Assembly (NCBI GenBank): GCA_018056375.1 | Contig: JAGPFQ010000001.1 | Location: 432,448 to 496,447 of the forward strand | Length of the DNA stretch: 64,000 nucleotides | Reading direction: 5' to 3' | Origin: Candidatus Dojkabacteria bacterium | GTDB taxonomy: Bacteria; Patescibacteriota; Dojkabacteria; SC72 | In this document: positions 13,221 to 58,255 of the stretch, one piece after another | Layout: each line of letters opens with the position of its first letter | How positions within the stretch are numbered: the stretch's first letter is position 1 | Notes under the pieces: model-generated | Told to the model about the DNA's origin: nothing | What the model saw: the letters and a program-made list of their open reading frames with translations, nothing else | Databases searched by the model: none | Translations under genes and position numbers: made by a program

Positions 13221-13295
13221 TGGTACCGCTACGGGGAATCGAACCCCGATTGTAGGATTGAGAATCCTATGTCCTAACCGTTAGACGATAGCGGC
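13221..13295 (-). tRNA. tRNA-Glu (anticodon CUC), CCA encoded
   Basis: 75-nt cloverleaf on the minus strand. It has a GCCGCTA acceptor, a D-arm 'GTCTAACGGTTAGGAC' resembling bacterial tRNA-Glu, an anticodon loop 'TTCTCAA', a T-arm 'GGGGTTCGATTCCCC' and a terminal CCA. Confidence 0.85.
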
Positions 13296-21264: not shown

Positions 21265-23367
21265 TTACACTGTTTTACCAGAGATTTCCTCAGCTATTCC
21301 CTTTGGTACTTCTGCATAGTGTGCAGGTTCCATTGTAGATGAACCTCTTCCACTAGTAATAGACCTTAGTTCATTTGTATATCCAAAGAGTTCTGCTAAT
21401 GGTACAAATGCTGTAATCCTGTTAATGCCACTACCTAGACTCTCCGTACCTTGGATTTGCCCTCTTTTACTACTGAGGGAGCCTGTGACATCTCCCATAT
21501 ATTCATCAGGTGTATCAACATCAACTTTCATAATTGGTTCTAGTAGTATTGGATCTCCCAATCTCATGCCTTCTTTGAAAGCCATAGATCCTGCAATCTT
21601 AAATGCTGCTTCAGAGGAGTCAACATCATGGTATGAACCATCATATACAGTAACCTTAATATCAACAACTGGATATCCTGCTGTAACACCTGACTTCATA
21701 GCTTCTTCTACACCCTTTTGGATAGCTGGGATAAATTCCCTTGGAATTGCACCTCCCTTTACATCGTTAACAAACTCAAAACCTTTACCCTTCTCATTTG
21801 GTTCTAACTTCAACCAACAGTGACCATACTGACCTTTTCCACCAGACTGTTTAACATATCGTCCTTCGACTTGCTCAACGTTACTCTTAATAGTCTCTTT
21901 GTATGCTACCTGTGGCTTACCTACATTTGCGGCAACATTAAACTCTCTTTTCATTCTATCAACAATGATATCTAAGTGAAGCTCACCCATACCTGAGATA
22001 ATTGTTTGACCTGTCTCATGATTTGAACTTACTCTAAATGTTGGATCTTCCTTAACAAATCTTGCTAAAGCTTCAGACATCTTCTCTTCATCTGACTTTG
22101 TAGCTGGCTCGATTGCCTGTGATACAACTGGCTCTGCAAACTGAATCTGTTCAAGGATAATTGGATTCTTCTCATCACAAAGAGTATCTCCTGTGACAGA
22201 GTCTTTCAAACCAACAATAGCACCAATATCTCCAACCCTTAAAGCAGGAACTTCTTCCCTGTCATCTGCATGCATTAAGATAAGTCTACTTGCCCTCTCT
22301 TTGATATTTTTTGTGGAGTTCAAGACATATGAACCTGAATCAATCTTCCCAGAATACACTCTAAAGTATGAGAGATTTCCTACATGAGGGTCATTAACAA
22401 TCTTAAAGACTAATGCAGAGAAGGGTTCTGTCTCTTCTGCTTTTCTCTCTTCTTCTTCACCTGTCTTTGGATTTACCCCCATTACTGCAGGAACATCTAA
22501 AGGTGATGGTAAACAGATTGTGATGTAGTCTAAAAGAGTCTTAGCCATTGCTGTTCTGGTATCACCACCCAGTACTGGGAAAATATTCTCTGCTAGTGTT
22601 CCTTTTCTTAAAGCTGCATAGAGTTCCTCTTCTTTAAGTTCCTCTCCTGCAAAATACTTCTCCATTAAATCATCATCCTGTTCTGCCAATGCTTCTACTA
22701 ATATGTTTCTCAACTCTTCAACTTTATCTTTTATATCTTCAGGTATTGGGATTTCAATCAAATCTGGAGTGTCAATACCTTCATATTTGTACGCTTTCAT
22801 CTTTACCAAGTCTACAAAACCATGTAGGTCTTGTTCTTTTCCAATTGGGTATGTAACTGCAACTGCCTTATTACTTAACCTGTCCTTAATTGTCTGGAAA
22901 CTATGATCAAAATCACCTCCAATGAGGTTAATCTTGTTCATAAAACAAATTCTTGGTACATGATATTTATTTGCTTGTCTCCAAACTGTTTCAGACTGTG
23001 GTTCCACTCCTTTTCTTCCATCAAAAATAACTACTGCACCATCTAGAACTCTAAGAGATCTCTCAACCTCCGCTGTAAAGTCTACATGCCCTGGTGTATC
23101 GATGATATTGATTCTATGATCCTCACCATTATATGGCCAGAAGCATGTAACAGCTGCAGACATAATAGTAATACCTCTCTCTTGTTCCTGTTCCATGAAG
23201 TCTGTAGTTGCTTCACCTTCGTGTGTTTCCCCAATCTTATGAACCTGTCCAGTAAAATACAATAATCTCTCTGTTGTGGTTGTCTTACCTGCATCGATAT
23301 GTGCAATAATACCAATATTTCTAATTTGGTCTAAAGGCATCTTAACATTGTATGTGTTTTTATCCAT
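21265..23367 (-). CDS. fusA: translation elongation factor G
   Basis: '[14 protein letters not shown]' G1 motif, 700 aa, all five EF-G domains. Stands alone, not adjacent to rpsL/rpsG/tuf. Confidence 0.9.
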
Positions 23368-36521: not shown

Positions 36522-38519
36522 TTAAAGCTCCTTTACCATATCACCTTTACCTTTTTTCTTAAATGAGAAATATGCTATAGTTCCACTACCTATTAAGGAT
36601 ATAGATATTAATAATATTCCCCAGAAAGAATCGAGTGCTCCTGTTTTAGGTGTCTCACCTGAGTAAATGGGTTGTTGAGGAGTTTCCGGAGATACACTTT
36701 GAGGATTCGACGAAGGTACTACATATTGAGCAGACCCAACAATACCGTAATCTTTCAGTCTGCCCACGTTTACTTTATCTGCAGGAGGAACAGAAGAATC
36801 TTTTTCAAGGCCTATGACTATGTCTTTGAGGTCTATACCTTCCATACCTATTTTTTCTTGTGGAGCACTAAAAGTTGTATATGGTTCAATTATTAAGGTA
36901 TCTCCAGCTGTGTGTTCAAAATAGCTAGTACCATCTTCTACTCTCATTTCAGATAGAGGAAGACCCCAACTTCCATCTTCACTTACATCTGTAGATATCA
37001 ACGTACTTGTACCTTTACTACCTGTATCATCTCCATCCTTTATGCTTGCTAACAAAATTACTTCCTTATGCTCAGGCATGCCTGTTAATTCCCCTACAAT
37101 ATTAAACAGACCTCCTGTCCTCTCTATTTCAGGGAATGTAGTAACAGTAAAACCTTTTCCTCCATTGCTATATGTATCATTCCCAGATACTACGTTGTAA
37201 TAGTACTTTGTTTCAGGTTGAAGTTTTTCAACATTGACAGTATGAACATAGTATTCTCCTTTAACAAGTTCGCCATCCCTTTTGTCTAATGCTACACTGT
37301 TAAGCTGAGTCGGAGAAGTTCCATACTTAACAGTACCTTCTTCCTTTTGAGCAGATACCCACAGGACTGTAAACTTCGTATCACTCAAGTTTGTAACTTT
37401 AATACTATCAGGGCCTGTGCTTCCACTAACACCTGATTGAGATGCAGTGGTAAGGTCTGTCCACCTTATATGATGTATTATTCTATACTGTCTATTTGTA
37501 AATTCTTTATCATTATCCATTGGATCTGTATCATAATTATCACCTGGTATATATGGGTCGTCTGGTCTATATGGGTCTTCATAGTCATCATATGGATCAC
37601 TTGGTTCTTCAGTGTTTGCACTTATACATAATTCCCTAGTTAGATATCTTCCAGAACCAGAGCAATTCTCTGTTGTCTCTTTACATATACCATCAAAATA
37701 CCAACATTTACCCTCTTCAGGTGAGGAAACTACTAGCTTTGATTCTTTTGGGAGAGATGCATATATATCTTTTCCTTCCTCTAGTAACAAGTCATTTCCA
37801 GCCCTTAGTATACCTGCACTGTCAAATAGTGTTGCATATGTACCAGTTAAGACAGCTCCCCTGCCTCTTCCATCTATAGCAAGGATTGTAATGCCTGTAC
37901 TGTCTGTTATCTTAACTCTTTCTTTATCTGCTATGCTTAAGATAGAAGAGAGGTCTAGATGCCAACTTTTACTACTGGATAGTGTTGAAGATACAGGGAA
38001 TGAGCTTTGGTCACTAAGTAAGAGATAGACCACGACATCGTCATCAGATGCTGATGATACTTGACCTCCTGCGGGATTAACAACAGGAAGTTTTTCACTC
38101 ATTGGAGCTGTTCTAAACATTAGTTCTTTTCCTTCACTTGATGTGTATTTTTTACTATCTGATTGTATTAAGAATTTGTATTGAGTATTTGGAGCCAGGT
38201 CAGAGAGCTCAACATAGTGTGTATATCTTTTGTCTAATCTGCTTGAATCTCGAACATCTTTGTATGCTTTTCTTTCTTCTCCATTTTCGAGTAAGACTAC
38301 TGATCCATATGCTGATTTTTCAGTTGTCCAAGATATTGTTATTAGACTAGTAGTAATATCACTTATTGCAACATTTTTAGGGTCTATGTCTTGAGAAGCT
38401 CTACTTCTCATGTCAATTATCTTATGTGTTGCAAATACCAGAAGTGGTAGTGCTAGGATAAGGACTATTAGAATTACATTCTTTTTCCTTCTTATTTGAG
38501 GTAATTGAGCTATTTTCAT
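36522..38519 (-). CDS. surface protein with two PAP-N/FN3-like modules, an acidic Cys-containing central region, and a C-terminal sorting-signal-like TM (665 aa)
   Basis: N-terminal signal anchor. The modules 'ISDITTSLITISWTT...YTHYVELSDLAPNTQYKF' and 'VTNLSDTKFTVLWVS...YYVHTVNVEKLQPETKYYYNVVSG' are paralogous to the 304-aa protein. C-terminus 'TPKTGALDSFWGILLISISLIGSGTIAYFSFKKKGKG'. Confidence 0.55.
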   Translation of the reverse strand: MKIAQLPQIRRKKNVILIVLILALPLLVFATHKIIDMRSRASQDIDPKNVAISDITTSLITISWTTEKSAYGSVVLLENGEERKAYKDVRDSSRLDKRYTHYVELSDLAPNTQYKFLIQSDSKKYTSSEGKELMFRTAPMSEKLPVVNPAGGQVSSASDDDVVVYLLLSDQSSFPVSSTLSSSKSWHLDLSSILSIADKERVKITDSTGITILAIDGRGRGAVLTGTYATLFDSAGILRAGNDLLLEEGKDIYASLPKESKLVVSSPEEGKCWYFDGICKETTENCSGSGRYLTRELCISANTEEPSDPYDDYEDPYRPDDPYIPGDNYDTDPMDNDKEFTNRQYRIIHHIRWTDLTTASQSGVSGSTGPDSIKVTNLSDTKFTVLWVSAQKEEGTVKYGTSPTQLNSVALDKRDGELVKGEYYVHTVNVEKLQPETKYYYNVVSGNDTYSNGGKGFTVTTFPEIERTGGLFNIVGELTGMPEHKEVILLASIKDGDDTGSKGTSTLISTDVSEDGSWGLPLSEMRVEDGTSYFEHTAGDTLIIEPYTTFSAPQEKIGMEGIDLKDIVIGLEKDSSVPPADKVNVGRLKDYGIVGSAQYVVPSSNPQSVSPETPQQPIYSGETPKTGALDSFWGILLISISLIGSGTIAYFSFKKKGKGDMVKEL

Positions 38520-38912: not shown

Positions 38913-41900
38913 TTATTTTGTTCCACACTCCCCATTTTTTTGTCCACCAGGATTCCAAATGATTGATTTACAATTTGCTTCCTTTGGTTGGAAACTGTTA
39001 ATTCTTACAAAGTATCCATTTAATGGACTTATTGGGAAATCTTGACCATATGTTTGACCTTCTGATACCTGGAAGCCTTCATACCTACCTTTACTAGTTG
39101 GCCACCACGTTACATTGTTAGATTGAAGACCTTCTGTACTATTAATACTATTTATGAAGGATTGAGCTGTATATGCTTTTGTATGACCATGTACTCCTAC
39201 TAAATTCCAACCTTCTGAGAAGGCGATTGGTACAGAACTCTTAAGAGTTTTACCTGGGACTGATATAGTAGCATCTTTCGTTGCAATTATGACATAGCCT
39301 TTACCAAATACTAATGTTTCATCGGTAAAACCTTTGGTTTCCTTTGTTGTAAAGTCATAAGAAACACCACCTTCCCAAGCACCACTTTGGAAACTTGCAA
39401 TTCTTGTTATTATTCCTTCATCCTTATTCATTAGTTTAACAAAATCTCCCATCTTTAAACCTTGGTTTGCACTTACAGTTGGAAGGAAGTTAAATGAAAT
39501 AATATTAATTCCTGATTTTAGGTCTATTTCATTCATTGTCACCTCATCAGAAACTGTTACTGTAGTAGCAGATTTAGGTACTAAAAGGTCTTCATTATCT
39601 TGTGGATTATTTGGATCTTCAGGAGCTTGATATCCATCTAGACCATTTCTCTCATAGTAGAATAGATGTGCAGTCCCTGGACTACCCATTACGATTGCAC
39701 TTCCACCACCTTCAGCACTAATTTTATATATAGATATTTCTGGGAAGTATATTAAATCTGTACTACTACTTACTTCCTCTGCGTGTACTTTAGAGACATA
39801 TTTGGAACTTGCACCTCCACTTGAAAGTGCAGGACAGTCCTCTAATGGACAAAGAATATTATCCTTAGTGTCATCGAATTTATGATACTCTCTCCATTCA
39901 CATTTATGATAAGAAGAAAGTGTTGATCTTGGATTCTTAAAACATACCAACTGAGTGCTTTCATTGTATGAATCAAGATCCTCACAGGAAGAATCTCCGT
40001 GACACAATTCTGTCGTAATAATCGTAGAGCGAGCCTTCTCACACTCAGTCATTGAACAAAAACTTCCTCTGTTTCCAGTACACTGACTTTTAGGTATTCC
40101 ATTTCTATCTGTTGTATACCCATATGTAGATCCACAACATTGTTGATTAGAAATTTGCGTTGCTCCCATTGATTCTGGTGTGTAATAGCAATAACACCCA
40201 GCCGGACTGTAGCACTTAGATCCCCCTCCAATAATACGGTCACTTTGACCAATCATTGATCTCGCTGCGGCATTACACGAACCCAACTCTAGGTACCTAT
40301 CTGCTCTAATTGTCCCATCATCATTGTAACAGAAGCTCCAGTCACCACTATTACTACACAAACCGTAATCACCTATATTTATATAATAGCACTTTACTTC
40401 ACTTCTACGTTTTAAGAAATTCCTACACTCTGTTAGAGTTCTATATAAATTAGAGGATGGTAAACATCCTTTGCTCTTAGGATACTGAGACTCACTACAT
40501 AAAGCACTCGCTTGGGCTTCGTTTCTAACAATCTCAAAACAGTACTTCCCATCAACTCCACCTCCTTCAATCTGGCATACAGTTGGTTCTCCCGCTTTAC
40601 CAAAATTAAAAGGATCCTTACCACTACCTTCACAAATACAACCATAGTGATAACCATACCCTTTTTGATCATGACATGGCGCTCCTTCAGCATTCGCTTT
40701 TATTGTTAAACGTTTTGTAGTATCCGTAGGAGAAGTATCTATTGTCTTACATAAAGTGGGTTCACTAGTATTCATCTTCCCAAAATTCTTAGTAGTACCA
40801 TCACTATATTTACAAATACAACCATTATCTTTATCTGGACATGTTACTCCTGTAGTAGTAGGTATTACAGGCATTCGTTCTGTAGGAGAAGCATCTGTTG
40901 TCTTACATAAAGTTGGTTCGTTTGTATTCTTCTTCCCAAAATCCTTAGTAGTACCATCACTATACACACAAATACAACCATTATCTTTATCTGTACATGC
41001 TGCTCCTGTTTCTGTAGCATTCACCCTTTTTGTACGTTTTGTGGGGGTAGGAGTAGGAGTGTTGGAACAATATATTGTATAACCATTAGTACTCGACACA
41101 TTCAAACGTGTCCCCGTAACAGAAAAACCTGCATTCACAGTATATGGCATACTAGAGCTACAGAAAGCATTATAGTTAGATGCTGTAGAAGCACTAACAC
41201 AGAGACTCAAATCTCCACCTCCAGCACTAGTTTTACCATTGATTACCACAGGGAAACTTGATGATTTACAAGAAGAACTGGACTTCGCATTATTACAAGC
41301 AGTTGTTGTGGTATAACAACCACTTGCAGAATCACAAGAGTCCTTTTGTACTTTTGTAGAACAATTAGGAGTACAATAACAATCCTTCTTAGTTGGAGCA
41401 CCACCTAGGTTACTCTCACATGTAGATTTATGTAAATAACATCCTTCACGGGTATTGCAATTAGTTTTCTTTATAGGTTCAGCGCACTGATTTTCTGTAC
41501 AATAGCAGTCTCTTTCAGTGGTTTGAGGAGGCTGAGTAGGTTGAGGTTGGATCTGATCTTGACACACTGACTGAGAGTTGTAACATCCTTCACTAGCATT
41601 ACAACTAGGTTTTTGTTGAGCAGCTCCACAACTATCATTAGTACAATAACAATTTTGCAAGCTAATACATCCAGCCCAGCTAGGATCACAACTTGCAGTA
41701 CATCTACCACTAAGACTAACAGAATACCCATTCGCAGGAGTTCCAGCAATAGTACATGTACAACCATTACCGTTTTGACATATAGCACCTTCTGTTGTTA
41801 ATGCTGTAACTCCTTGGTCTCCACAACCTACATTACCACAAGTAACTCCAGGACCCTCAACAACTTTGTTATAACACAGTGTTCTATTCTGATCTCTCTT

Positions 41901-43169
41901 ACGATACTGCTTATAACATTTGTTAAGTCCATTCGAACACCCTCCTCGTACATAACCATCATCAGGATAACAACCATCTGCAGGTTCTTGAGGTACAGGC
42001 GATGGTGTTGACGTGGGAGGGGTTGGCGCGGGAGGAGTTGGTGCAGGATTAGAAGGTAGTAAATCTTTACAGAGCCCCTGATTCCCATAATATCCTTCGC
42101 TAGCTTTGCAGAATTTACCTTGAATAGTTGTAGCATTACAATTATCATTCACATCGTAACAATAAGCTGCATAAGTTTTACTAATCAATTTTCTAAGTAA
42201 ATTACCTAACTCTTTCTCTTCACTCTTATCCTCTCCCCAATCATCTTCACTATTCCCCATTAATTTAAGAGGGAATGACGTTTCTTCATACAATGCATAA
42301 CCTGTCGATCCTGGTTTTGCATTATCTACCTGAGGCATGAACTCTAATAGAGCTCCTTCCATAGAAACAGGTTTATTCTCCTCATCTCTAATATTAGCTA
42401 AATCAATACTCCAACCTCCTTCTTTATTTGTAACTGCTGACATCAAAGGATACTCATTACCATCCTTGAATGTCCTAAGGAATATAACGGAGTCAAAGTT
42501 TTTCCTCTCCCCCATACTCCCATCATTTCTATAATAAGTATTATATGATGTCCCATATGCAGAGTTTGGTGTAGTTATATCTGTAATCAGAGACTTTGTT
42601 TTCTGCGAAAACACAAGAGAGACTGGAAGCTCTCTCTCTACAAACTCAACATCTTCAAAATTACTTTGATTATAACTAATCAATCCATTACCCACCCTAA
42701 AGAAATATTCCTTATCTGCATCTAAATCTGGTACTGTAACATGGTGAGTATAGTATGCTCCTTTTTTAGTTACTTTAACATTATCACAATCAAAGCCAGT
42801 AACCTCTATTGTAGAGTCTTCACTCTTCTTGGATACCTGCTCGTTAAACTTACTAACACATTCTGTCTGAGCATTAGATACATCCCTATCATCAAAGGCC
42901 TTCTTCTTACCTAACCAAGCTAATGGACCTGGAAGAAAGTTATCCTTCTCTCCATAGTAAACCATACCGACCATTGGTTCTTTAGTCACCCATGAGACAG
43001 TAAAGGCACTATCTGTTACATTACTTACTCTTACCTTGTACGGACGATTCTTTACACTAAAGTAAGCTACATATCCTACATAACCTAGAAGTAAGACAAT
43101 TAACACTCCCAGAGATACCTTAGAAATGGTTCTAAGGGTTTTAGTAAAACTTGGTTTCATACAATACAC
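38913..43169 (-). CDS. giant N-anchored Cys-rich extracellular protein (1418 aa) with N-terminal PAP-N/FN3-like module, Pro/Thr linker and several Cys-repeat families
   Basis: Signal anchor. 'VSNVTDSAFTVSWVT...YYTHHVTVPDLDADKEYFFRVG'. 'PAPTPPAPTPP' linker. Three 'CYCTxNxC...CN..EGCY' repeats. Three roughly 47-aa 'C(T/P)DKDNGCIC.YSDGTTK.FGK' repeats. No C-terminal TM. Confidence 0.6.
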   Translation of the reverse strand: MYCMKPSFTKTLRTISKVSLGVLIVLLLGYVGYVAYFSVKNRPYKVRVSNVTDSAFTVSWVTKEPMVGMVYYGEKDNFLPGPLAWLGKKKAFDDRDVSNAQTECVSKFNEQVSKKSEDSTIEVTGFDCDNVKVTKKGAYYTHHVTVPDLDADKEYFFRVGNGLISYNQSNFEDVEFVERELPVSLVFSQKTKSLITDITTPNSAYGTSYNTYYRNDGSMGERKNFDSVIFLRTFKDGNEYPLMSAVTNKEGGWSIDLANIRDEENKPVSMEGALLEFMPQVDNAKPGSTGYALYEETSFPLKLMGNSEDDWGEDKSEEKELGNLLRKLISKTYAAYCYDVNDNCNATTIQGKFCKASEGYYGNQGLCKDLLPSNPAPTPPAPTPPTSTPSPVPQEPADGCYPDDGYVRGGCSNGLNKCYKQYRKRDQNRTLCYNKVVEGPGVTCGNVGCGDQGVTALTTEGAICQNGNGCTCTIAGTPANGYSVSLSGRCTASCDPSWAGCISLQNCYCTNDSCGAAQQKPSCNASEGCYNSQSVCQDQIQPQPTQPPQTTERDCYCTENQCAEPIKKTNCNTREGCYLHKSTCESNLGGAPTKKDCYCTPNCSTKVQKDSCDSASGCYTTTTACNNAKSSSSCKSSSFPVVINGKTSAGGGDLSLCVSASTASNYNAFCSSSMPYTVNAGFSVTGTRLNVSSTNGYTIYCSNTPTPTPTKRTKRVNATETGAACTDKDNGCICVYSDGTTKDFGKKNTNEPTLCKTTDASPTERMPVIPTTTGVTCPDKDNGCICKYSDGTTKNFGKMNTSEPTLCKTIDTSPTDTTKRLTIKANAEGAPCHDQKGYGYHYGCICEGSGKDPFNFGKAGEPTVCQIEGGGVDGKYCFEIVRNEAQASALCSESQYPKSKGCLPSSNLYRTLTECRNFLKRRSEVKCYYINIGDYGLCSNSGDWSFCYNDDGTIRADRYLELGSCNAAARSMIGQSDRIIGGGSKCYSPAGCYCYYTPESMGATQISNQQCCGSTYGYTTDRNGIPKSQCTGNRGSFCSMTECEKARSTIITTELCHGDSSCEDLDSYNESTQLVCFKNPRSTLSSYHKCEWREYHKFDDTKDNILCPLEDCPALSSGGASSKYVSKVHAEEVSSSTDLIYFPEISIYKISAEGGGSAIVMGSPGTAHLFYYERNGLDGYQAPEDPNNPQDNEDLLVPKSATTVTVSDEVTMNEIDLKSGINIISFNFLPTVSANQGLKMGDFVKLMNKDEGIITRIASFQSGAWEGGVSYDFTTKETKGFTDETLVFGKGYVIIATKDATISVPGKTLKSSVPIAFSEGWNLVGVHGHTKAYTAQSFINSINSTEGLQSNNVTWWPTSKGRYEGFQVSEGQTYGQDFPISPLNGYFVRINSFQPKEANCKSIIWNPGGQKNGECGTK
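40570..41040 (-). repeat. in-frame tandem direct repeat (three copies of about 141 nt, third degenerate) inside the 1418-aa CDS
   Basis: Near-identical stretches about 120 nt apart ('...ttagtagtaccatcactata...caaatacaaccattatctttatctg...'). Visible at protein level as two CxDKDNGCICxYSDGTTKxFGK copies plus one divergent copy. Confidence 0.6.
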
Positions 43170-47557: not shown

Positions 47558-47580
47558 TACTAATTCCTTTAAATAAAAAT

Positions 47581-47886
47581 GTATAAGCACATAATAAGCC
47601 GGATTCTGTATAACGATGGTTATCTATCTATGCGGTTTAACCTTGCTTCAAGTGGGGGTTACCAGCAATAGAACATTACTGTCTATCCGGTGGTCTCTTA
47701 CACCACCATTTCACCCTTACCTAGTAAACTAGGCGGTATCTTTCTGTTGCCCTTTTCTCCGAAAGATCACTCCCTCCCAACTCTCGTTGGCACTTATCTC
47801 GATATGTTCGAGACTGACACGAAGTCCGGACTTTCCTCATCTACTCTAAATGAGCAAATGCAACCATCTAATAGTACTTATACACC
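47581..47886 (-). ncRNA. rnpB: RNase P RNA (bacterial type A)
   Basis: The minus strand carries universally conserved blocks: 'GAGGAAAGTCCGGACTTC' (P4 5' strand), 'GGTAAGGGTGAAATGGTGGTGTAAGAGACCACC', 'GGTAACCCCCACTTGAAGCAAGG' and 'ACAGAATCCGGCTTAT' (P4 3' strand). P1 pairs 5' 'GTATAAGTAC' with 3' 'GTGCTTATAC'. Local GC is higher than surrounding sequence. Confidence 0.85.
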
Positions 47887-52977: not shown

Positions 52978-53211
52978 TTAATTCATATATCTATATGTTA
53001 TTCTTCCCCTTTCTTTATCATATGGGGTCATTTCAATTTTCACTTTATCTCCTTCTAGAATACGAATGTAGTGCATTCTCATCTTTCCAGAGAGATAACC
53101 AATAACTTCGTGCTTAGAACCATTTACCTCAATCTCAACAATGAATTGAGTGTTTGGTAAAGATTCTTTCACGATACCATCAAATTCAAAAATTTTTTTA
53201 CTGTCTTTCAT
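52978..53211 (-). CDS. infA: translation initiation factor IF-1
   Basis: S1-like OB fold '[13 protein letters not shown]...[14 protein letters not shown]'. Confidence 0.9.
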
Positions 53212-53325
53212 ACTTTTCTCATATTCCCATTTAATGGGAATCCCCCGAATTATACCAAAGGAAGACTAGTATTTCAACAAAAACAGTAAAATCTTCTATC
53301 TTTGAACGAGACTAAGAGAGGATAT

Positions 53326-53353
53326 CAAATATTTAAAAGTTTTACAAGCATTT
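53326..53353 (-). repeat. copy A of a roughly 28-bp direct repeat (core AAAGTTTTACAAGCATTT); putative duplicated promoter
   Basis: An exact 18-nt core (53336-53353) is shared with 54976-54993. On the minus strand it reads ...TTGTAA, a 17-nt spacer, then TATCCT. Confidence 0.5.
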
Positions 53354-53391
53354 TTTAATTATATATTTCTCTCTTTTTATATACTTAAGGA

Positions 53392-54906
53392 CTACAACAA
53401 CTCTAATATCTCTGGTAGTTGCTCTCCATTCTGAATCATTTCTTCTTTCTTTTTATACAACTTTGCTAACACAGCATTTCTTCTTTTCATTTCTCTACTA
53501 AGCATCCTAAGTTCCTCTTTAGTATAATCTTGTGGCATTTTATAACCATCATAGCTTATGGAAACTTTCTTACCACCACCTAGATCTAATTCTCCCTCCT
53601 CATTATGACCTACAGAATCCAACAGAGGTTTAACATAGGCATCTATTAAAGGGATAGAGACCAGACCTTCTTTTTCCGTCCATGTGAATACACTATAGAG
53701 ACCATCTTTTGTAAATATGTAAGATGTACAATCTGGAACATCAGGCTTATCTTCACCTAGAACTCCTTTAATGAAGGGATTATCTATAAACTCTGCTTGA
53801 AAATATACACTATCAGAAACAATTACTTCCTGACCATTGTCAAGTAAAAGCTGTCTACATGCATAAGGACAGGTCTCGTGTAGTTGTCTCATCTTTTCCA
53901 CATTAAATAACTCCGTTACTGTCATGTTTTTCTTCGAGGCTTCGATATATTCACTAATCGCTCTATTTGCGACAGCTCTCCCTTTTGTTCTTGTTAAATA
54001 GTCAATATAACTTTGAAAAGAGTTATCTTTTATTCCTTCTAATTGCTTCTGGGACACCCAAGAATATTCACTTTTCTTAAAACAATCTGGAAGATCCATA
54101 AAATCATCTTCAATCGCATACTTTTCGTTGTACCACTTTTCGTAATCTTTGAAAACATGCTCTCGAAAAGCAAGCTCATTAAAAAAAGCTTCTAAAGCAA
54201 CAGGATCAGTATGACCAGGACTAAAGAAGTTTGGAATTCTCAGACAAGGTAATACTACTTTACCATCGAGCACAGTAACTCTCATTATATCTGCATTGCT
54301 AAACCTTTTTAAATGTTTATGATAATTTCGAACTCTTGTCACTATAGCAGAAACAAGATGAGAATCAGCTTCAAACAAAGATCCTAAATGGTTAGTTCTC
54401 GAACCTTCTAATGGTTTTAACAGAGAAAACCTATCTTTAATAGGTCTTTCCGCATATTTCTCTCGCTCAACAGAGATTATTTCTTGCTCTGTGATTATTA
54501 ATCGATCAAGCTGCTGACTGAAAACATCTACCTGTTTCCTTTTGTTATCTCTTCCTGCTTTTGTTAGCCAGTCATAGTACAAATCCTCGGTAGAATACAA
54601 CCAAGGATTATCAAAGACAACGTATTTTTCTCCACTATCTAGTAAACCACCTTTGCAAGCATGTGGATATTTTTCCAGCAACTCATCCATCATTTCTATA
54701 TGTTGCTTTTGATTTTCTGAGAGTTCTCTTCCATGCATCTGAAACAAATATCCTTCCCTTTTTCTAGCATCATCTAATCCTACATTCTCCTCAAGCAAAG
54801 CCAATTCAAAAGCAATATCTGGATCAGCTATCTGACCATATTCATTATAAAAAGGTTGTTTTGGAGAATTATCTATACCCTCTACTTCACCTAATTCTGG
54901 TGTCAT
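53392..54906 (-). CDS. hypothetical 504-aa protein with internal duplication, inserted in the ribosomal-protein operon
   Basis: 'YPHACKGGLLDSGEKYVVFDNPWLY' and 'CPYACRQLLLDNGQEVIVSDSVYF' are internal repeats. No recognisable family. It occupies the slot where map normally sits. Confidence 0.45.
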   Translation of the reverse strand: MTPELGEVEGIDNSPKQPFYNEYGQIADPDIAFELALLEENVGLDDARKREGYLFQMHGRELSENQKQHIEMMDELLEKYPHACKGGLLDSGEKYVVFDNPWLYSTEDLYYDWLTKAGRDNKRKQVDVFSQQLDRLIITEQEIISVEREKYAERPIKDRFSLLKPLEGSRTNHLGSLFEADSHLVSAIVTRVRNYHKHLKRFSNADIMRVTVLDGKVVLPCLRIPNFFSPGHTDPVALEAFFNELAFREHVFKDYEKWYNEKYAIEDDFMDLPDCFKKSEYSWVSQKQLEGIKDNSFQSYIDYLTRTKGRAVANRAISEYIEASKKNMTVTELFNVEKMRQLHETCPYACRQLLLDNGQEVIVSDSVYFQAEFIDNPFIKGVLGEDKPDVPDCTSYIFTKDGLYSVFTWTEKEGLVSIPLIDAYVKPLLDSVGHNEEGELDLGGGKKVSISYDGYKMPQDYTKEELRMLSREMKRRNAVLAKLYKKKEEMIQNGEQLPEILELL

Positions 54907-54965
54907 ATATCTATGGCATTAAATTAATACAAGATTGGGGTAGTAAATCTGTAATTGCAGAATAG

Positions 54966-54993
54966 CAAATTTATTAAAGTTTTACAAGCATTT
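54966..54993 (-). repeat. copy B of the roughly 28-bp direct repeat (core AAAGTTTTACAAGCATTT)
   Basis: Identical 18-nt core to 53336-53353. On the minus strand it reads TTGTAA, a 17-nt spacer, then TATTCT. Lies 87 nt upstream of the 504-aa gene start. Confidence 0.5.
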
Positions 54994-54999
54994 AAATCA

Positions 55000-55629
55000 C
55001 TATTCTTTTATAAATTTTACTAAATCATCTCTATTCTCTAATGTAACAAAATGACCACTAGTATAGGACTTAAAAGTAACATCTGCCCCAATTGATTTAA
55101 AGTATTCACTACTCTCTTTACCCAATGAATAAGGTACAACTGGATCATCAATACCGTGAGATATAAATATCTTCAAATGTTTAACAGACTTTTTAGTATA
55201 TCTATATTCTTTCACAAAATCTGGTATATAACCACTAAGAGCAACAACTTTACTAATACTCTCCCCCATAATTAATGCTAGACTTTGTGCTAACATTGCT
55301 CCCTGACTAAAGCCTAGCAATACAACATTTTTAGTGTCTAAGTTGTATTCTTGAATTGCATCATTTATAAAAACCTGAGTAGATTTCAACACCTCATCAA
55401 ATTCAACTCTCACAGGCTGACCATTTTCTTCAAAATTCCAAAATGCATACCCTGGAAAAATAGTAATTGGACCTCGCAAACTGAAAATATGATAAGTCTC
55501 GTTGAAATTTTCAACTAGTGACAACAAATCCTTCTCATCACTTCCATATCCGTGGAATAAAAAGATTGCAGGCTTCCTTTCTCCTGACTCCTTTGGAGCA
55601 GAATATTTAAATACAAAATTGGATTTCAT
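55000..55629 (-). CDS. alpha/beta hydrolase (phospholipase/carboxylesterase family)
   Basis: 'IFLFHGYGSDEKDL' and nucleophile elbow 'GFSQGA'. Confidence 0.65.
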   Translation of the reverse strand: MKSNFVFKYSAPKESGERKPAIFLFHGYGSDEKDLLSLVENFNETYHIFSLRGPITIFPGYAFWNFEENGQPVRVEFDEVLKSTQVFINDAIQEYNLDTKNVVLLGFSQGAMLAQSLALIMGESISKVVALSGYIPDFVKEYRYTKKSVKHLKIFISHGIDDPVVPYSLGKESSEYFKSIGADVTFKSYTSGHFVTLENRDDLVKFIKE

Positions 55630-55637
55630 CTCTATAT

Positions 55638-56306
55638 CTACAGTCCTAATATTTCAAGTATTTCCTTGTGGATTTCTTCAATAGATGGGGCTGCATCTAC
55701 CTCAACTAAGATGCCTCTTGTTCTGTAAGTGTCAAGAATTGGCTCTATTGTTCGATTGTACTCTCTAAGTCTTTCTTTTATCTTTTCTGGCTTATCATCA
55801 TCTCTCTGTATGAGTTTCGTATTACACTTATCACAAATACCCTGAACCTTTTCCTTTTTAAACTTAGGGTGGAATGTCATACCACAACTAGGACAATATG
55901 TTCGAACAGACATTCTTTCAATTGCAGTTTCAGGAGAGAGGGTGAAATGGATGAACATATCTAGCTTTCTGTTCTTTTGTTGTAGTAGTTTATCAAGGTA
56001 TTCAATCTGCCCTACTTCTCTAACAACTGATACTAAAGCCCAATGTTTTGTATTATCAAATCTGTCTAACCATTTTGGAAACATCTTGTTGTATATTATC
56101 TCGTTTGGCACAAATTTCCCCTGTGTGGTGTACTCTGTTGCAAGAATGGCATCCTTGTCTCCTTCTGCAAAGAGTTTTCTAATCATATCTCCAGTACCAA
56201 TATTCTGAAAGCCATAGTCATCCACTAAAAGCTCTACTTGTGTATCTTTGCCACACCCTGAAGGTCCATGGAAAAGAATTGTCCTTGCATCTGAGGTTAC
56301 CTCCAT
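55638..56306 (-). CDS. adk: adenylate kinase (Zn-binding LID)
   Basis: 'ILFHGPSGCGKDTQ' P-loop and LID 'CPSCG...CDKCN'. Confidence 0.9.
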   Translation of the reverse strand: MEVTSDARTILFHGPSGCGKDTQVELLVDDYGFQNIGTGDMIRKLFAEGDKDAILATEYTTQGKFVPNEIIYNKMFPKWLDRFDNTKHWALVSVVREVGQIEYLDKLLQQKNRKLDMFIHFTLSPETAIERMSVRTYCPSCGMTFHPKFKKEKVQGICDKCNTKLIQRDDDKPEKIKERLREYNRTIEPILDTYRTRGILVEVDAAPSIEEIHKEILEILGL

Positions 56307-56417: not shown

Positions 56418-56876
56418 ATGGAGATATTCAAAGGCAGAATTTGCCATATTTATAACAGAGGGAATCGAAAAGATTTGATATGTTTCGACAATGAAGATTA
56501 CGATTCTTTGTTGAGTCTAATAAACAGGTCTTTTAATAGTCTTTACTTTGATGTTATCTCTGTTTGTATTATGCCCAATCACTACCATCTCTTAGTCTCG
56601 CAAATTCATAACAAACCAATTTGGCAATGTATGCACAGAATTGGGACTCTACATGCAAAGTATATTAACAAAAAGTATGGATTAACAGGACATCTTTTTG
56701 AAGATAGTTACAAATGTAAAGAGGTAAAAGACTGCACATACTTCAAAAAGATTGTGAATTATATTAGAGATAACCCTAATGAGTTAAAAGACAGAACAGA
56801 TGTTAGTTTTCGACTTCAAGAAAATAATTTCCTACAAGATTATTATATTATTCACCTTTCTTCTATCGATGATTAA
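56418..56876 (+). mobile_element. IS200-like/REP-associated Y1 (HUH) tyrosine transposase gene (152 aa)
   Basis: 'CHIYNRGNRKDLIF' N-terminus, HUH motif 'MPNHYHLLV' and catalytic Tyr region 'VNYIRDNPNE'. Opposite strand to the surrounding operon. The secY/adk intergenic gap is enlarged to about 680 nt. Confidence 0.65.
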
Positions 56877-56989: not shown

Positions 56990-58255
56990 TTACAGATAAC
57001 GATCGTAACTTCTTGTTGTAACCATAGATTCTACTTGGCTTTTGATTTCGAGAATTACACCTACAACTATTAGTAGACCTGTACCCGAGAATACTGCTCC
57101 TGGTACTAAACCTACCCTTACAAGCATATCTGGCAAGATAGCAAGTATTGCTAAGAAAAGAGCTCCAACAACAGCTAATCTAAAACTTATTGTCCTTAGA
57201 TATTTTGATGTATTTTCTCCTGGTCTAATTCCCTGTATGAAAGCTCCTTGCTTTTGTAGATTTTCGGCTAACTCATCGGTTTTAAATACTACAGAGAGAT
57301 AGAAGAGTGAAAAACCAATAACTAAAACGAATGTTGCAATATCTTTTACATAAGGAGTGTTTAGTATATCAATCATTTTCTGAGAGAAGTTAGTTAAACC
57401 TGGATTGAAATTTTTACTAATTAAGAACTTCCCTACTAACTGAGGAAAGGATAGAAATGCCATTGCAAAAATTACAGGCATAACTCCAGATTGTGTTAGT
57501 TTTATAGGGATAAAGCTTTCCAAAGCTCCTCCAGTTCTAACTCTCCTTGAGTACTGAACCTTTACCCTTCTTTCGACTGTAGTAACTATAATTACAGCAA
57601 CTATCATTATGAATGCAATTACAATAAAAATGCCTTTTTGCAATCCATCCATTGTCATAAAGTTTGATCTTAATGTACCAGGAATACCTGACAGAATACC
57701 TAACATAATCAGATATGATGTCCCACCACCAAGACCACTTTCCGAAATTAATTCTCCAAACCACATCATAGTCACAGCACCTGCTGTAAATATTGCAACC
57801 ATTGTTGCAAGTTCTAAAGGAGGAAGTTTAGTTACTAAACCAAAGCCTAGTAATGTTGAATAGATAACAAATGACTGTAAGATTGCTAACGGTACAGTAA
57901 CAAGTCTTGTATACATAGATATTTTTCTTCTCCCCTCAGCACCCTCTTTTCTTGTTTCATCAAGTGCTGGGATAACTGTACCTAATAATTGGAAGATGAT
58001 AGAAGCATTAATATATGGTGTTAAACCAATTGCAACAATTGATGCACTCTCTAGTACTCCCCCTGACACAGCAGTTAAAACATCTCCCATACTTGTCCCT
58101 TCAAAAAGTTTCTTTATTGCATCAGCAGGAATACCAGCTACTGGAATAGATGAGAGGACTCTAAAGATAACAAGTATCAGCAAAGAAAAGAGGATTTTAT
58201 CCCTAATCTCTTTTGTCTTAAAGATATGCTTAATTCTTTCAAATATCTTTTGCAT
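56990..58255 (-). CDS. secY: preprotein translocase subunit SecY
   Basis: Ten TM segments, conserved SecY motifs, and position after rplO. Confidence 0.9.
   Translation of the reverse strand: MQKIFERIKHIFKTKEIRDKILFSLLILVIFRVLSSIPVAGIPADAIKKLFEGTSMGDVLTAVSGGVLESASIVAIGLTPYINASIIFQLLGTVIPALDETRKEGAEGRRKISMYTRLVTVPLAILQSFVIYSTLLGFGLVTKLPPLELATMVAIFTAGAVTMMWFGELISESGLGGGTSYLIMLGILSGIPGTLRSNFMTMDGLQKGIFIVIAFIMIVAVIIVTTVERRVKVQYSRRVRTGGALESFIPIKLTQSGVMPVIFAMAFLSFPQLVGKFLISKNFNPGLTNFSQKMIDILNTPYVKDIATFVLVIGFSLFYLSVVFKTDELAENLQKQGAFIQGIRPGENTSKYLRTISFRLAVVGALFLAILAILPDMLVRVGLVPGAVFSGTGLLIVVGVILEIKSQVESMVTTRSYDRYL

Follow-up and report, generated by a model that had tools for sequence, protein, structure and literature searches.

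The infA end of a ribosomal-protein cluster was analysed in a 64,000-nucleotide stretch of contig JAGPFQ010000001.1 (the whole stretch is referred to as the window), whose host lineage is Candidatus Dojkabacteria, a member of the Candidate Phyla Radiation (CPR)/Patescibacteria. Here, a direct repeat brackets a single gene, X, which lies between an alpha/beta hydrolase gene and infA and encodes a protein of 504 aa. The repeat is probably a duplicated distal infA promoter that serves both as the promoter of a cassette and as the recombination border of a strain-variable slot, similar to the minimal mobile elements (MMEs) of Neisseria. Comparison with related loci indicates that the repeat represents two paralogous copies of an infA-upstream element, which border a cassette of 1.64 kb; depending on the strain or species, this cassette occurs, is missing, is duplicated or has been replaced, and one cassette has crossed species recently. 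A strain-variable slot with cassettes exchanged between species is the main point of this analysis and was invisible from one window.

A repeat-bordered cassette in a variable slot

The 18-mer AAAGTTTTACAAGCATTT had exactly two matches in the window, both on the + strand (53336-53353 and 54976-54993), and no third copy was found in the 64 kb when <=2 mismatches were allowed. The chance expectation was 0.02 (100 shuffles) against 2 observed, which rules out a chance repeat. These results agree with the first-pass annotation of this DNA, which had placed the exact 18-mer upstream of X and infA, and nowhere else in the window, and had judged it unlikely by chance. Nor did the element behave, within the 64 kb searched, as the high-copy repeat against which that annotation had cautioned, as there are no further copies in the window. 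A repeat search extended the match to a direct repeat of 35 nt (53319-53353 and 54959-54993; 30/35 identical, 86%; spacing 1640 bp) that ranks top among the repeats of its region. On the coding (−) strand, both copies consist of TTGTAA, 17 nt and TATTCT or TATCCT, with TGn ahead of the −10 hexamer. This had also been the original reading of that strand (TTGTAA-17-TAT(T/C)CT), and no other such site exists in the 64 kb.

Copy 1 (54959..54993, −), the promoter-like element of the cassette gene, has its −35 TTGTAA at 54987-54982, a 17-nt spacer, TGc plus TATTCT at 54964-54959 and the 18-nt core at 54976-54993. Copy 2 (53319..53353, −), the distal promoter-like element of infA, has its −35 TTGTAA at 53347-53342, a spacer of the same 17 nt, TGa plus TATCCT at 53324-53319 and the core at 53336-53353. 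Because copy 1 begins 6 nt past the hydrolase stop codon and copy 2 begins 38 nt past that of X, the repeat brackets exactly one gene. Core to core, the cassette unit spans 1,640 bp (53354..54993, −) and comprises the putative promoter copy, a putative 5' untranslated region (5'UTR; 54907..54958, −) that holds the 29-nt block CAGATTTACTACCCCAATCTTGTATTAAT, gene X (allele type X2; 53392..54906, −) and the 3' trailer TCCTTAAGTATATAAAAAGAGAGAAATATATAATTAAAA (53354..53391, −). The 504-aa open reading frame (ORF) annotated between the hydrolase and infA was confirmed at these coordinates; it is the sole ORF of the cassette, which is devoid of a transposase domain or recombinase. The conserved flanks of the slot are the hydrolase gene on the left (Abhydrolase_2; 55000..55629, −) and infA, encoding IF1, on the right (52978..53211, −).

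An identical X protein turned up in 17 contigs of several samples, in each case with an unchanged gene order. Among 5.8 billion proteins, the search returned no more than three full-length relatives or alleles plus a single fragment. For all full-length alleles, and on all contigs that extend into neighbouring genes, the position is between the hydrolase gene and infA. All relatives carry adk, the hydrolase gene and infA together with a conserved TTGTAA-17-TGnTATnCT upstream of infA, and an element of the copy 1 type is conserved ahead of every cassette allele. Five slot states were seen across the collected related loci (L numbers): X2 alone (the window), X1 + X2 in tandem (L007-L010, L030 and L031), X3 alone (L011-L014), a half-size allele of 194 aa, Xs (L018, L021 and L028), and an empty slot (L016, L017 and L019). 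The contigs of L018, L021 and L032 stop within the slot or at its edge, and L021 keeps an infA-type distal promoter-like element behind its cassette. The block CAGATTTACTACCCCAATCTTGTATTAAT is identical across all four cassette allele types, and a scan of metagenome contigs with it retrieved 5 contigs, all at this slot. The trailer recurs nearly unchanged between the two cassettes of the L007 and L031 tandems, and the X3 allele of L011 is likewise followed by its 3' part. The length of the repeated stretch ranges from ~8 nt (Xs lineages) through 35 nt (window) to >250 nt (L007 tandem).

L016 is ~96% identical to the window over 12 kb (SecY 98.8%, S13 and S11 100% at the protein level). Its hydrolase gene is followed directly by infA, and the 1,640-bp cassette is precisely absent. 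The junction reads TGATTT + AAATGCTTGTAAAACTTT + TAAATATTTGATATCC (the right part also given as TAAATATTTGATATCCTCTC), in which the left flank of window copy 1 and the right flank of copy 2 enclose the 18-mer; each of the two window copies can be aligned to the one copy of L016. Such a site would be the expected product of a crossover in the 18-nt identity or, equivalently, the state that preceded an insertion by which the site was duplicated. In L007 and L031, the tandem cassettes are each headed by their own promoter-like copy. The empty site and these tandem arrays bear out the earlier suggestion that the gene was acquired or duplicated together with a copy of the putative promoter.

A second suggestion, that the gene replaces map in the operon, did not survive comparison, as the hydrolase holds that position in every relative. 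X is optional, and not a map replacement, because it is absent from the ~96%-identical genome and from two other species. No map gene was found between adk and infA or among the tested window ORFs of 212-321 aa. The first-pass annotation had further held that a 504-aa ORF disrupted in relatives would speak against its reading, and this was found in part: the tandem X2 copy carries a CAG>TAG nonsense codon at residue 358, and L015 also has a 5' frameshift. Since a stop codon or frameshift disrupts the orthologous cassette in relatives, X is dispensable, not spurious.

Cassette divergence and exchange between lineages

Nucleotide identity between the window and L011, measured in 60-nt windows, was mostly 70-90% in secY and the ribosomal-protein genes and 90-95% over the last ~60 nt of the hydrolase gene, the upstream block and the first ~90 nt of X. 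It was ~50% in the body of X and 98% just downstream of X, copy 2 included. The three long alleles are almost identical over residues 1-45, have the C-terminal PEILELL in common and are 34-45% identical overall; at the codon level, the first ~45 and last ~10 codons of X are conserved between alleles around a body that is 30-40% identical. The different long allele held by other lineages has 34-37% aa identity. The fraction of identical codons at conserved amino acids was 0.90-1.00 for X codons 1-45, 0.78-0.81 for the hydrolase, ~0.55 for secY and 0.57 for S11. The 5' end of X is therefore conserved at the DNA level, given the difference from secY. The synonymous sites of the hydrolase gene were also unusually conserved between lineages, in all comparisons.

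Synonymous divergence (dS) of X2 between the window and L031 was 0.091, compared with 0.84 for infA, 0.83 for S13 and 1.32 for S11; secY dS was 1.32 between the window and L007, a sample of L031's lineage. The low-divergence tract common to the window and L031 runs exactly from the 18-mer to the stop codon. The low value for X2 against 0.83-1.32 in core genes argues that the X2 cassette was shared between species long after their split. The ratio of nonsynonymous to synonymous divergence (dN/dS) of the two X2 copies was 0.6, a value that cannot separate relaxed from diversifying selection because one copy is a pseudogene.

Closely related strains were found to hold different cassettes. Over 5.9 kb, up to ~30 nt inside the ORF, L018 (Xs) matches L007 (X1+X2) at 99.1% identity, and beyond that point the cassettes differ; four slot states occur inside a clade of 94-100% SecY identity. 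The adk of L011 (6600-7271) is 94.5% identical to the window adk, compared with ~78% for the adk of the other clade, yet SecY, S13 and infA put L011 in that other clade. This conflict, together with the synonymous conservation of the hydrolase gene, argues that recombination tracts extend into adk and the hydrolase gene. Behind X2, L007 and L031 both retain the 3' end of an Xs-type gene, a remnant that records an earlier replacement. The discordant dS values, the tract borders and the mosaic adk all point to gain, loss and exchange of cassettes via homologous recombination.

L018 (CAYPAR010000012.1), labelled 'Candidatus Saccharibacteria', is the locus with 99.1% identity to the Dojkabacteria-type L007. 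Its contig ends at 6767, ~140 nt past the hydrolase gene and inside the cassette, which suggests that its taxonomic label is wrong and that the variable slot broke the assembly.

The locus may be pictured as follows. In Candidatus Dojkabacteria the element stands as a single copy upstream of infA, distal to a stronger canonical promoter; in the genome studied here, a second, paralogous copy heads a 1.64-kb single-gene cassette inserted between the hydrolase gene and infA. Each copy may start transcription, the first that of the cassette gene, the second giving infA a start of its own again downstream of the cassette. As the comparison of loci shows, the copies are also the borders where a cassette is lost, duplicated or exchanged. 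Recombination in the 18-nt identity would give the exact empty site of L016. Homology would be provided on the left by the hydrolase 3' end, the promoter, the 5'UTR and the first 45 codons, and on the right by the last codons, the trailer and the infA promoter. Across such conserved flanks, whole-gene alleles could be exchanged through homologous recombination even without a recombinase gene in the cassette.

The promoter-like element and competing explanations

TTGTAA, the 17-nt spacer length, TG and TATnCT are kept in 11/11 copies from 7 lineages, ahead of cassettes and of infA, and the spacer sequence varies between lineages at many of its 17 positions (e.g. AACTTTTAAATATTTGA, AAATGTCTTTTTTTTGC and ATCTCTTTGTTTTTTGA). 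The −35 TTGTAA, invariant in all copies, is a 4/6 match to TTGACA; the −10 variants (TGc-TATTCT, TGa-TATCCT and TGa-TATGCT) are likewise 4/6 matches, with A2, T6 and TG constant. This pattern of conservation is what would be expected of a sigma-70 promoter with an extended −10, in which case the 18-mer would make up the −35 half of a promoter-like element of the sigma-70 type, ~35 nt long (TTGTAA-17-TGnTATyCT). In cassette-free L016, L017 and L019 the distal element is single-copy upstream of infA and, since L017 and L019 are distant, it appears to be ancestrally infA's. The upstream regions of single-module X paralogs elsewhere in CPR genomes are unrelated, so the putative promoter and 5'UTR belong to the locus and not to the gene family. 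The repeat may hence be described as a candidate distal infA promoter and its paralogous copy. The duplicated promoter proposed in the first-pass annotation is upheld in so far as the geometry is kept in every copy; for infA the element would be at most a distal promoter, because a far better canonical one lies 75 nt downstream.

Several points weigh against this explanation. The putative promoter role is read from sequence, each hexamer is a weak match (4/6), and both copies fell below the threshold of a consensus scan and were unlisted by it. The same scan found the near-consensus infA promoter TTGAAA-17-TGgTATAAT (53249..53277, −; conserved in all relatives), 75 nt downstream of repeat copy 2. 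The near-invariant ~90-nt upstream block plus 45 codons, synonymous sites included, goes beyond what promoter function explains. In the lineages with the half-size allele, the two promoter-like copies share hexamers only, so the slot can exist without a long exact repeat. The search for repeat copies covered 64 kb of the genome, and the difference between L016 and the window could be either a loss in L016 or a gain in the window lineage. Finally, homologous recombination and natural DNA uptake are processes that we infer.

Conservation of the element beyond its hexamers, e.g. GCTTGTAAAAC and the whole 5'UTR, would also fit an operator at which some DNA- or RNA-binding protein, for instance a transcription factor, regulates X and infA together, with the duplication a by-product of tandem duplication upstream of infA. 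The weak match of the hexamers to consensus and the position of the element distal to a strong canonical infA promoter fit such a role too. We consider it unlikely, given that distant copies keep exactly the geometry of a promoter (−35, 17-nt spacing, TG and −10) while the spacer sequence is free, and that no dyad symmetry was found within the repeat element. An operator would in any case leave the repeat as the border of a variable cassette unchanged. A different proposal concerns mobility: the 18-nt identity could be the att-like core of a site-specific mobile cassette whose recombinase is encoded elsewhere, either the neighbouring Y1 IS200-like transposase or an unseen integrase. Such a cassette would explain the sharp, reproducible borders, the precise empty site and a cross-species unit that starts exactly at the core, and a Y1_Tnp gene does lie 1.5 kb away, with another near a family member in L023. 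However, the cassette has no recombinase inside, a repeat search found no terminal inverted repeats or hairpins at its ends, and all occurrences are in one slot. Y1_Tnp does not track with the cassette either (L016 has Y1 without the cassette; L011 and L009 have the cassette without Y1). Moreover, a repeat length of ~8 to >250 nt fits paralogous sequence, not a fixed att core, and on its right side the transferred tract ends at the stop codon instead of at the second core. Site-specific mobility is, on this evidence, quite improbable.

Vertical birth-and-death of a tandem family, by old local duplications and differential loss with no horizontal exchange, would make the repeat a mere remnant. 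It could account for the tandem X1+X2 arrays, the Xs-type 3' remnant behind X2 in L007 and L031 and the membership of all cassettes in one family. Against it stand the X2 dS of 0.09 versus 0.8-1.3 for infA, S13, S11 and secY, the conflict between the adk and secY similarity patterns, and the different cassettes of strains that are 99.1% identical in the flank, and we give it very little credence. Two simpler origins were rejected. A genome-wide repeat, or one of the repetitive extragenic palindromic (REP) type, tied to the nearby Y1 transposase was dismissed as there were no extra copies in the 64 kb, a loosened pattern included, and Y1 presence was untracked with the cassette. A phage origin was dismissed because the 9 viral contigs that match the 18-mer do not share its flanks, so these matches are due to chance, and because X lacks IMG/VR relatives, a PHROG match and a BFVD fold match.

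The Y1 gene of the window encodes 152 aa (PF01797, E 2.6e-13) and lies between secY and adk (56418-56876, +). It is missing from L009, L011 and L017 and was gained or lost recently, because L009, which lacks it, carries the same X1 protein as L007. In L023, a short member of the X family has another Y1_Tnp gene on its upstream side, at a distance of 1.3 kb.

With respect to the leaders of the two genes, no Shine-Dalgarno-like GGAGG was evident in the X 5'UTR on inspection by eye. A structured RNA in the X leader was rejected, as its fold was no more stable than shuffles (z −0.84) and no Rfam family occurs at the locus. In the infA leader, a 7-8-bp hairpin, AUUCCCAU/AUGGGAAU, lies just downstream of the proximal promoter (53223-53241, −). 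Its stem has another sequence in L011, L017 and L019 with pairing kept at the same position (z −1.6 to −2.8; all folds are single-sequence predictions). This hairpin, at which no Rfam family was found, could stabilise the 5' end or take part in the autoregulation of IF1.

Viewed as a duplicated distal infA promoter at the border of an exchangeable cassette, the locus can be set beside several known systems. In the MMEs of Neisseria, strain-specific whole-gene cassettes are found between two conserved genes via homologous recombination (PMC3082526, citing Snyder et al. 2007). As far as that account describes MMEs, the X slot is alike in being bounded by two conserved genes, hydrolase and infA, in every slot read through, in holding different whole genes or none in close strains, with no mobility genes, and in the evident transfer of cassettes between lineages with recombination tracts that reach the flanks. 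On the same description it differs in three respects. All X-slot cassettes are alleles of one orphan gene family, and they carry a copy of the resident putative promoter and a near-invariant 5'UTR/N-terminal block that are themselves recombination homology. In addition, the slot sits within the ribosomal-protein/secY/adk/infA cluster, and its host is an uncultured CPR bacterium in which DNA uptake can only be presumed.

Tandem promoter duplication with unequal crossing-over in tandem gene arrays is a general mechanism, and direct repeats before successive genes, the deletion product of L016 and the expanded array of L007/L031 all resemble it. In contrast to plain duplication, X gene bodies are 34-45% identical whereas their 5' ends are ~90-95% identical, synonymous sites included, which argues for conversion or exchange over duplication followed by divergence. 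Like integron cassettes, X is a single-gene unit in a fixed slot, sometimes arrayed and variable in presence. Unlike them, the slot has no attC-like inverted repeat (53319-53400 and cassette ends), and its neighbours within +/-10 kb are ribosomal-protein and housekeeping genes with no intI or attI; X cassettes also bring their own putative promoter and do not rely on Pc. The locus departs as well from an insertion sequence or transposon with target-site duplication: the bracketed segment has no transposase or terminal inverted repeats, both copies of the motif in the 64 kb are at this locus, and the 5'UTR core was found at this slot only (5 metagenome contigs). Antigenic genes of the flagellin/pilin type have alleles with conserved termini around a hypervariable centre. 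By analogy only, X resembles them in its conserved N- and C-terminal coding ends, divergent body and allele replacement between strains; it differs in that X has no evident signal peptide or membrane segment and no sequence similarity to flagellin/pilin-type proteins.

An orphan protein family beside translation genes

X is acidic (pI, isoelectric point, 5.1) and hydrophilic (mean hydropathy −0.56). The absence of a recognisable family and the internal duplication, both noticed at first pass, were borne out. X had no family match in Pfam, PHROG, NCBIfam or PADLOC, and no relatives in IMG/VR; a defence system was rejected for want of a PADLOC match. When the N half was aligned with the C half of a 3-allele alignment, residues 26-102 matched residues 292-368 (hhalign probability 95.5%, E 1.5e-8). 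The first module copy (residues 26-102; 54601..54831, −) consists of three helices and a beta-hairpin and contains ...IADPDIAFELA...EKYPHACKGGLLDSGEKYVVFD; its duplicate, identified with hhalign (residues 292-368; 53803..54033, −), contains ...ETCPYACRQLLLDNGQEVIVSD.

A hidden Markov model (HMM) scan of 1.84 billion representatives gave 68 matches at E<=1e-3. These comprised X1, X3, the X2 fragment and ~65 proteins of 102-323 aa (most ~190-285 aa), nearly all of which match the N-terminal module only (profile positions ~14-100). The module consensus is PFYxExGxIxDPxxAxExA...RE..L...TGLTE.Q..N.E.M..L.EKYPxAF...DxxG, and the C-terminal end of most family members is formed by a charged helix and a tail, ...L-x-x-L, that is short and hydrophobic. 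Xs is the one-unit version of X. Family members with a named source came from Dojkabacteria and one Microgenomates-group genome.

AlphaFold2 (67-sequence alignment) predicted residues ~20-100 as three helices and a beta-hairpin with a predicted local distance difference test score (pLDDT) >90; the full-length model of X was too poor (pLDDT 62) and was unused. Foldseek gave no match at E<=1e-3 against PDB and BFVD, and its matches to type III secretion chaperones and IpaD were rejected (E>0.1; template modelling score, TM, <0.2). Sequence matches in PDB to 'Dokki_15' and 'HC34' (E 0.03-0.09) were rejected as chance matches because both are de novo designed cysteine proteases (bioRxiv 10.1101/2025.11.21.689808).

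The genomic contexts of the family were also compared. A single-module paralog (269-284 aa; L033 6001-6810, L026 6001-6855) is conserved in Dojkabacteria between the divergent hrcA-grpE-dnaK and rplY (L25), and could represent a stable 'core' of the family that gave rise to the cassette alleles. Another short relative lies directly upstream of fusA-tuf-rpsJ, and further ones adjoin an RRM protein, a PhdYeFM antitoxin or ruvAB. Translation genes therefore adjoin the family in 3/6 independent contexts, that of X upstream of infA included, a placement that is suggestive in gene-poor CPR genomes.

X can be described as a soluble acidic protein in which a ~240-aa unit occurs twice; the unit belongs to an orphan family of Dojkabacteria/Microgenomates (CPR) without a detectable known fold. 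With low confidence, it may be an interaction or conflict protein, possibly linked to translation, with a conserved N-terminal docking module and a variable body. A broader and rather doubtful idea is that the cassettes are alleles of a rapidly diversifying, previously unrecognised CPR protein system tied to the translation apparatus, with the slot as a device for swapping specificity between strains and species. Candidate roles in such a system would be a ribosome- or translation-factor-binding immunity, phage-conflict or host-interaction protein, whose N-terminal module would dock and whose body would give specificity.

The gene order around the slot, all on the − strand, is secY (56990-58255), adk (55638-56306), hydrolase, X and infA, followed by rpmJ, rpsM and rpsK; rpmJ (L36; 52827-52977, −) is a small unlisted ORF between infA and rpsM. 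Elsewhere in the window, an ordinary RNase P RNA (class A, 163 bits; 47580-47880, −) and an ordinary tRNA-Glu(CTC) (13221-13295, −) were identified, together with an EF-G gene (21265-23367) and two large proteins with purple-acid-phosphatase-N or fn3 domains (36522-38519 and 38913-43169).

Few stretches of bacterial genomes are as conserved and syntenic as the ribosomal-protein/secY/adk/infA cluster, which forms the backbone of phylogenies and binning for uncultured CPR lineages. What is new here is the orphan protein family and its unexpected place; tandem promoter duplication and an MME-like flexible slot are of known kinds. The slot implies that even this cluster can host flexible gene content, and that conserved translation genes may themselves anchor recombination between species. 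For assembly and binning it serves as a warning, as the contig of L018 breaks inside the cassette. The duplicated putative promoter offers a natural example of an inserted gene that brings or copies a resident promoter while the essential infA keeps its own. The family itself, an orphan of CPR bacteria with a confident but unmatched predicted N-terminal fold, dispensable, fast-evolving and repeatedly found beside translation genes, is a candidate for a role in episymbiont biology, and its importance would rise sharply if X acts on the translation machinery or in phage/host conflict.

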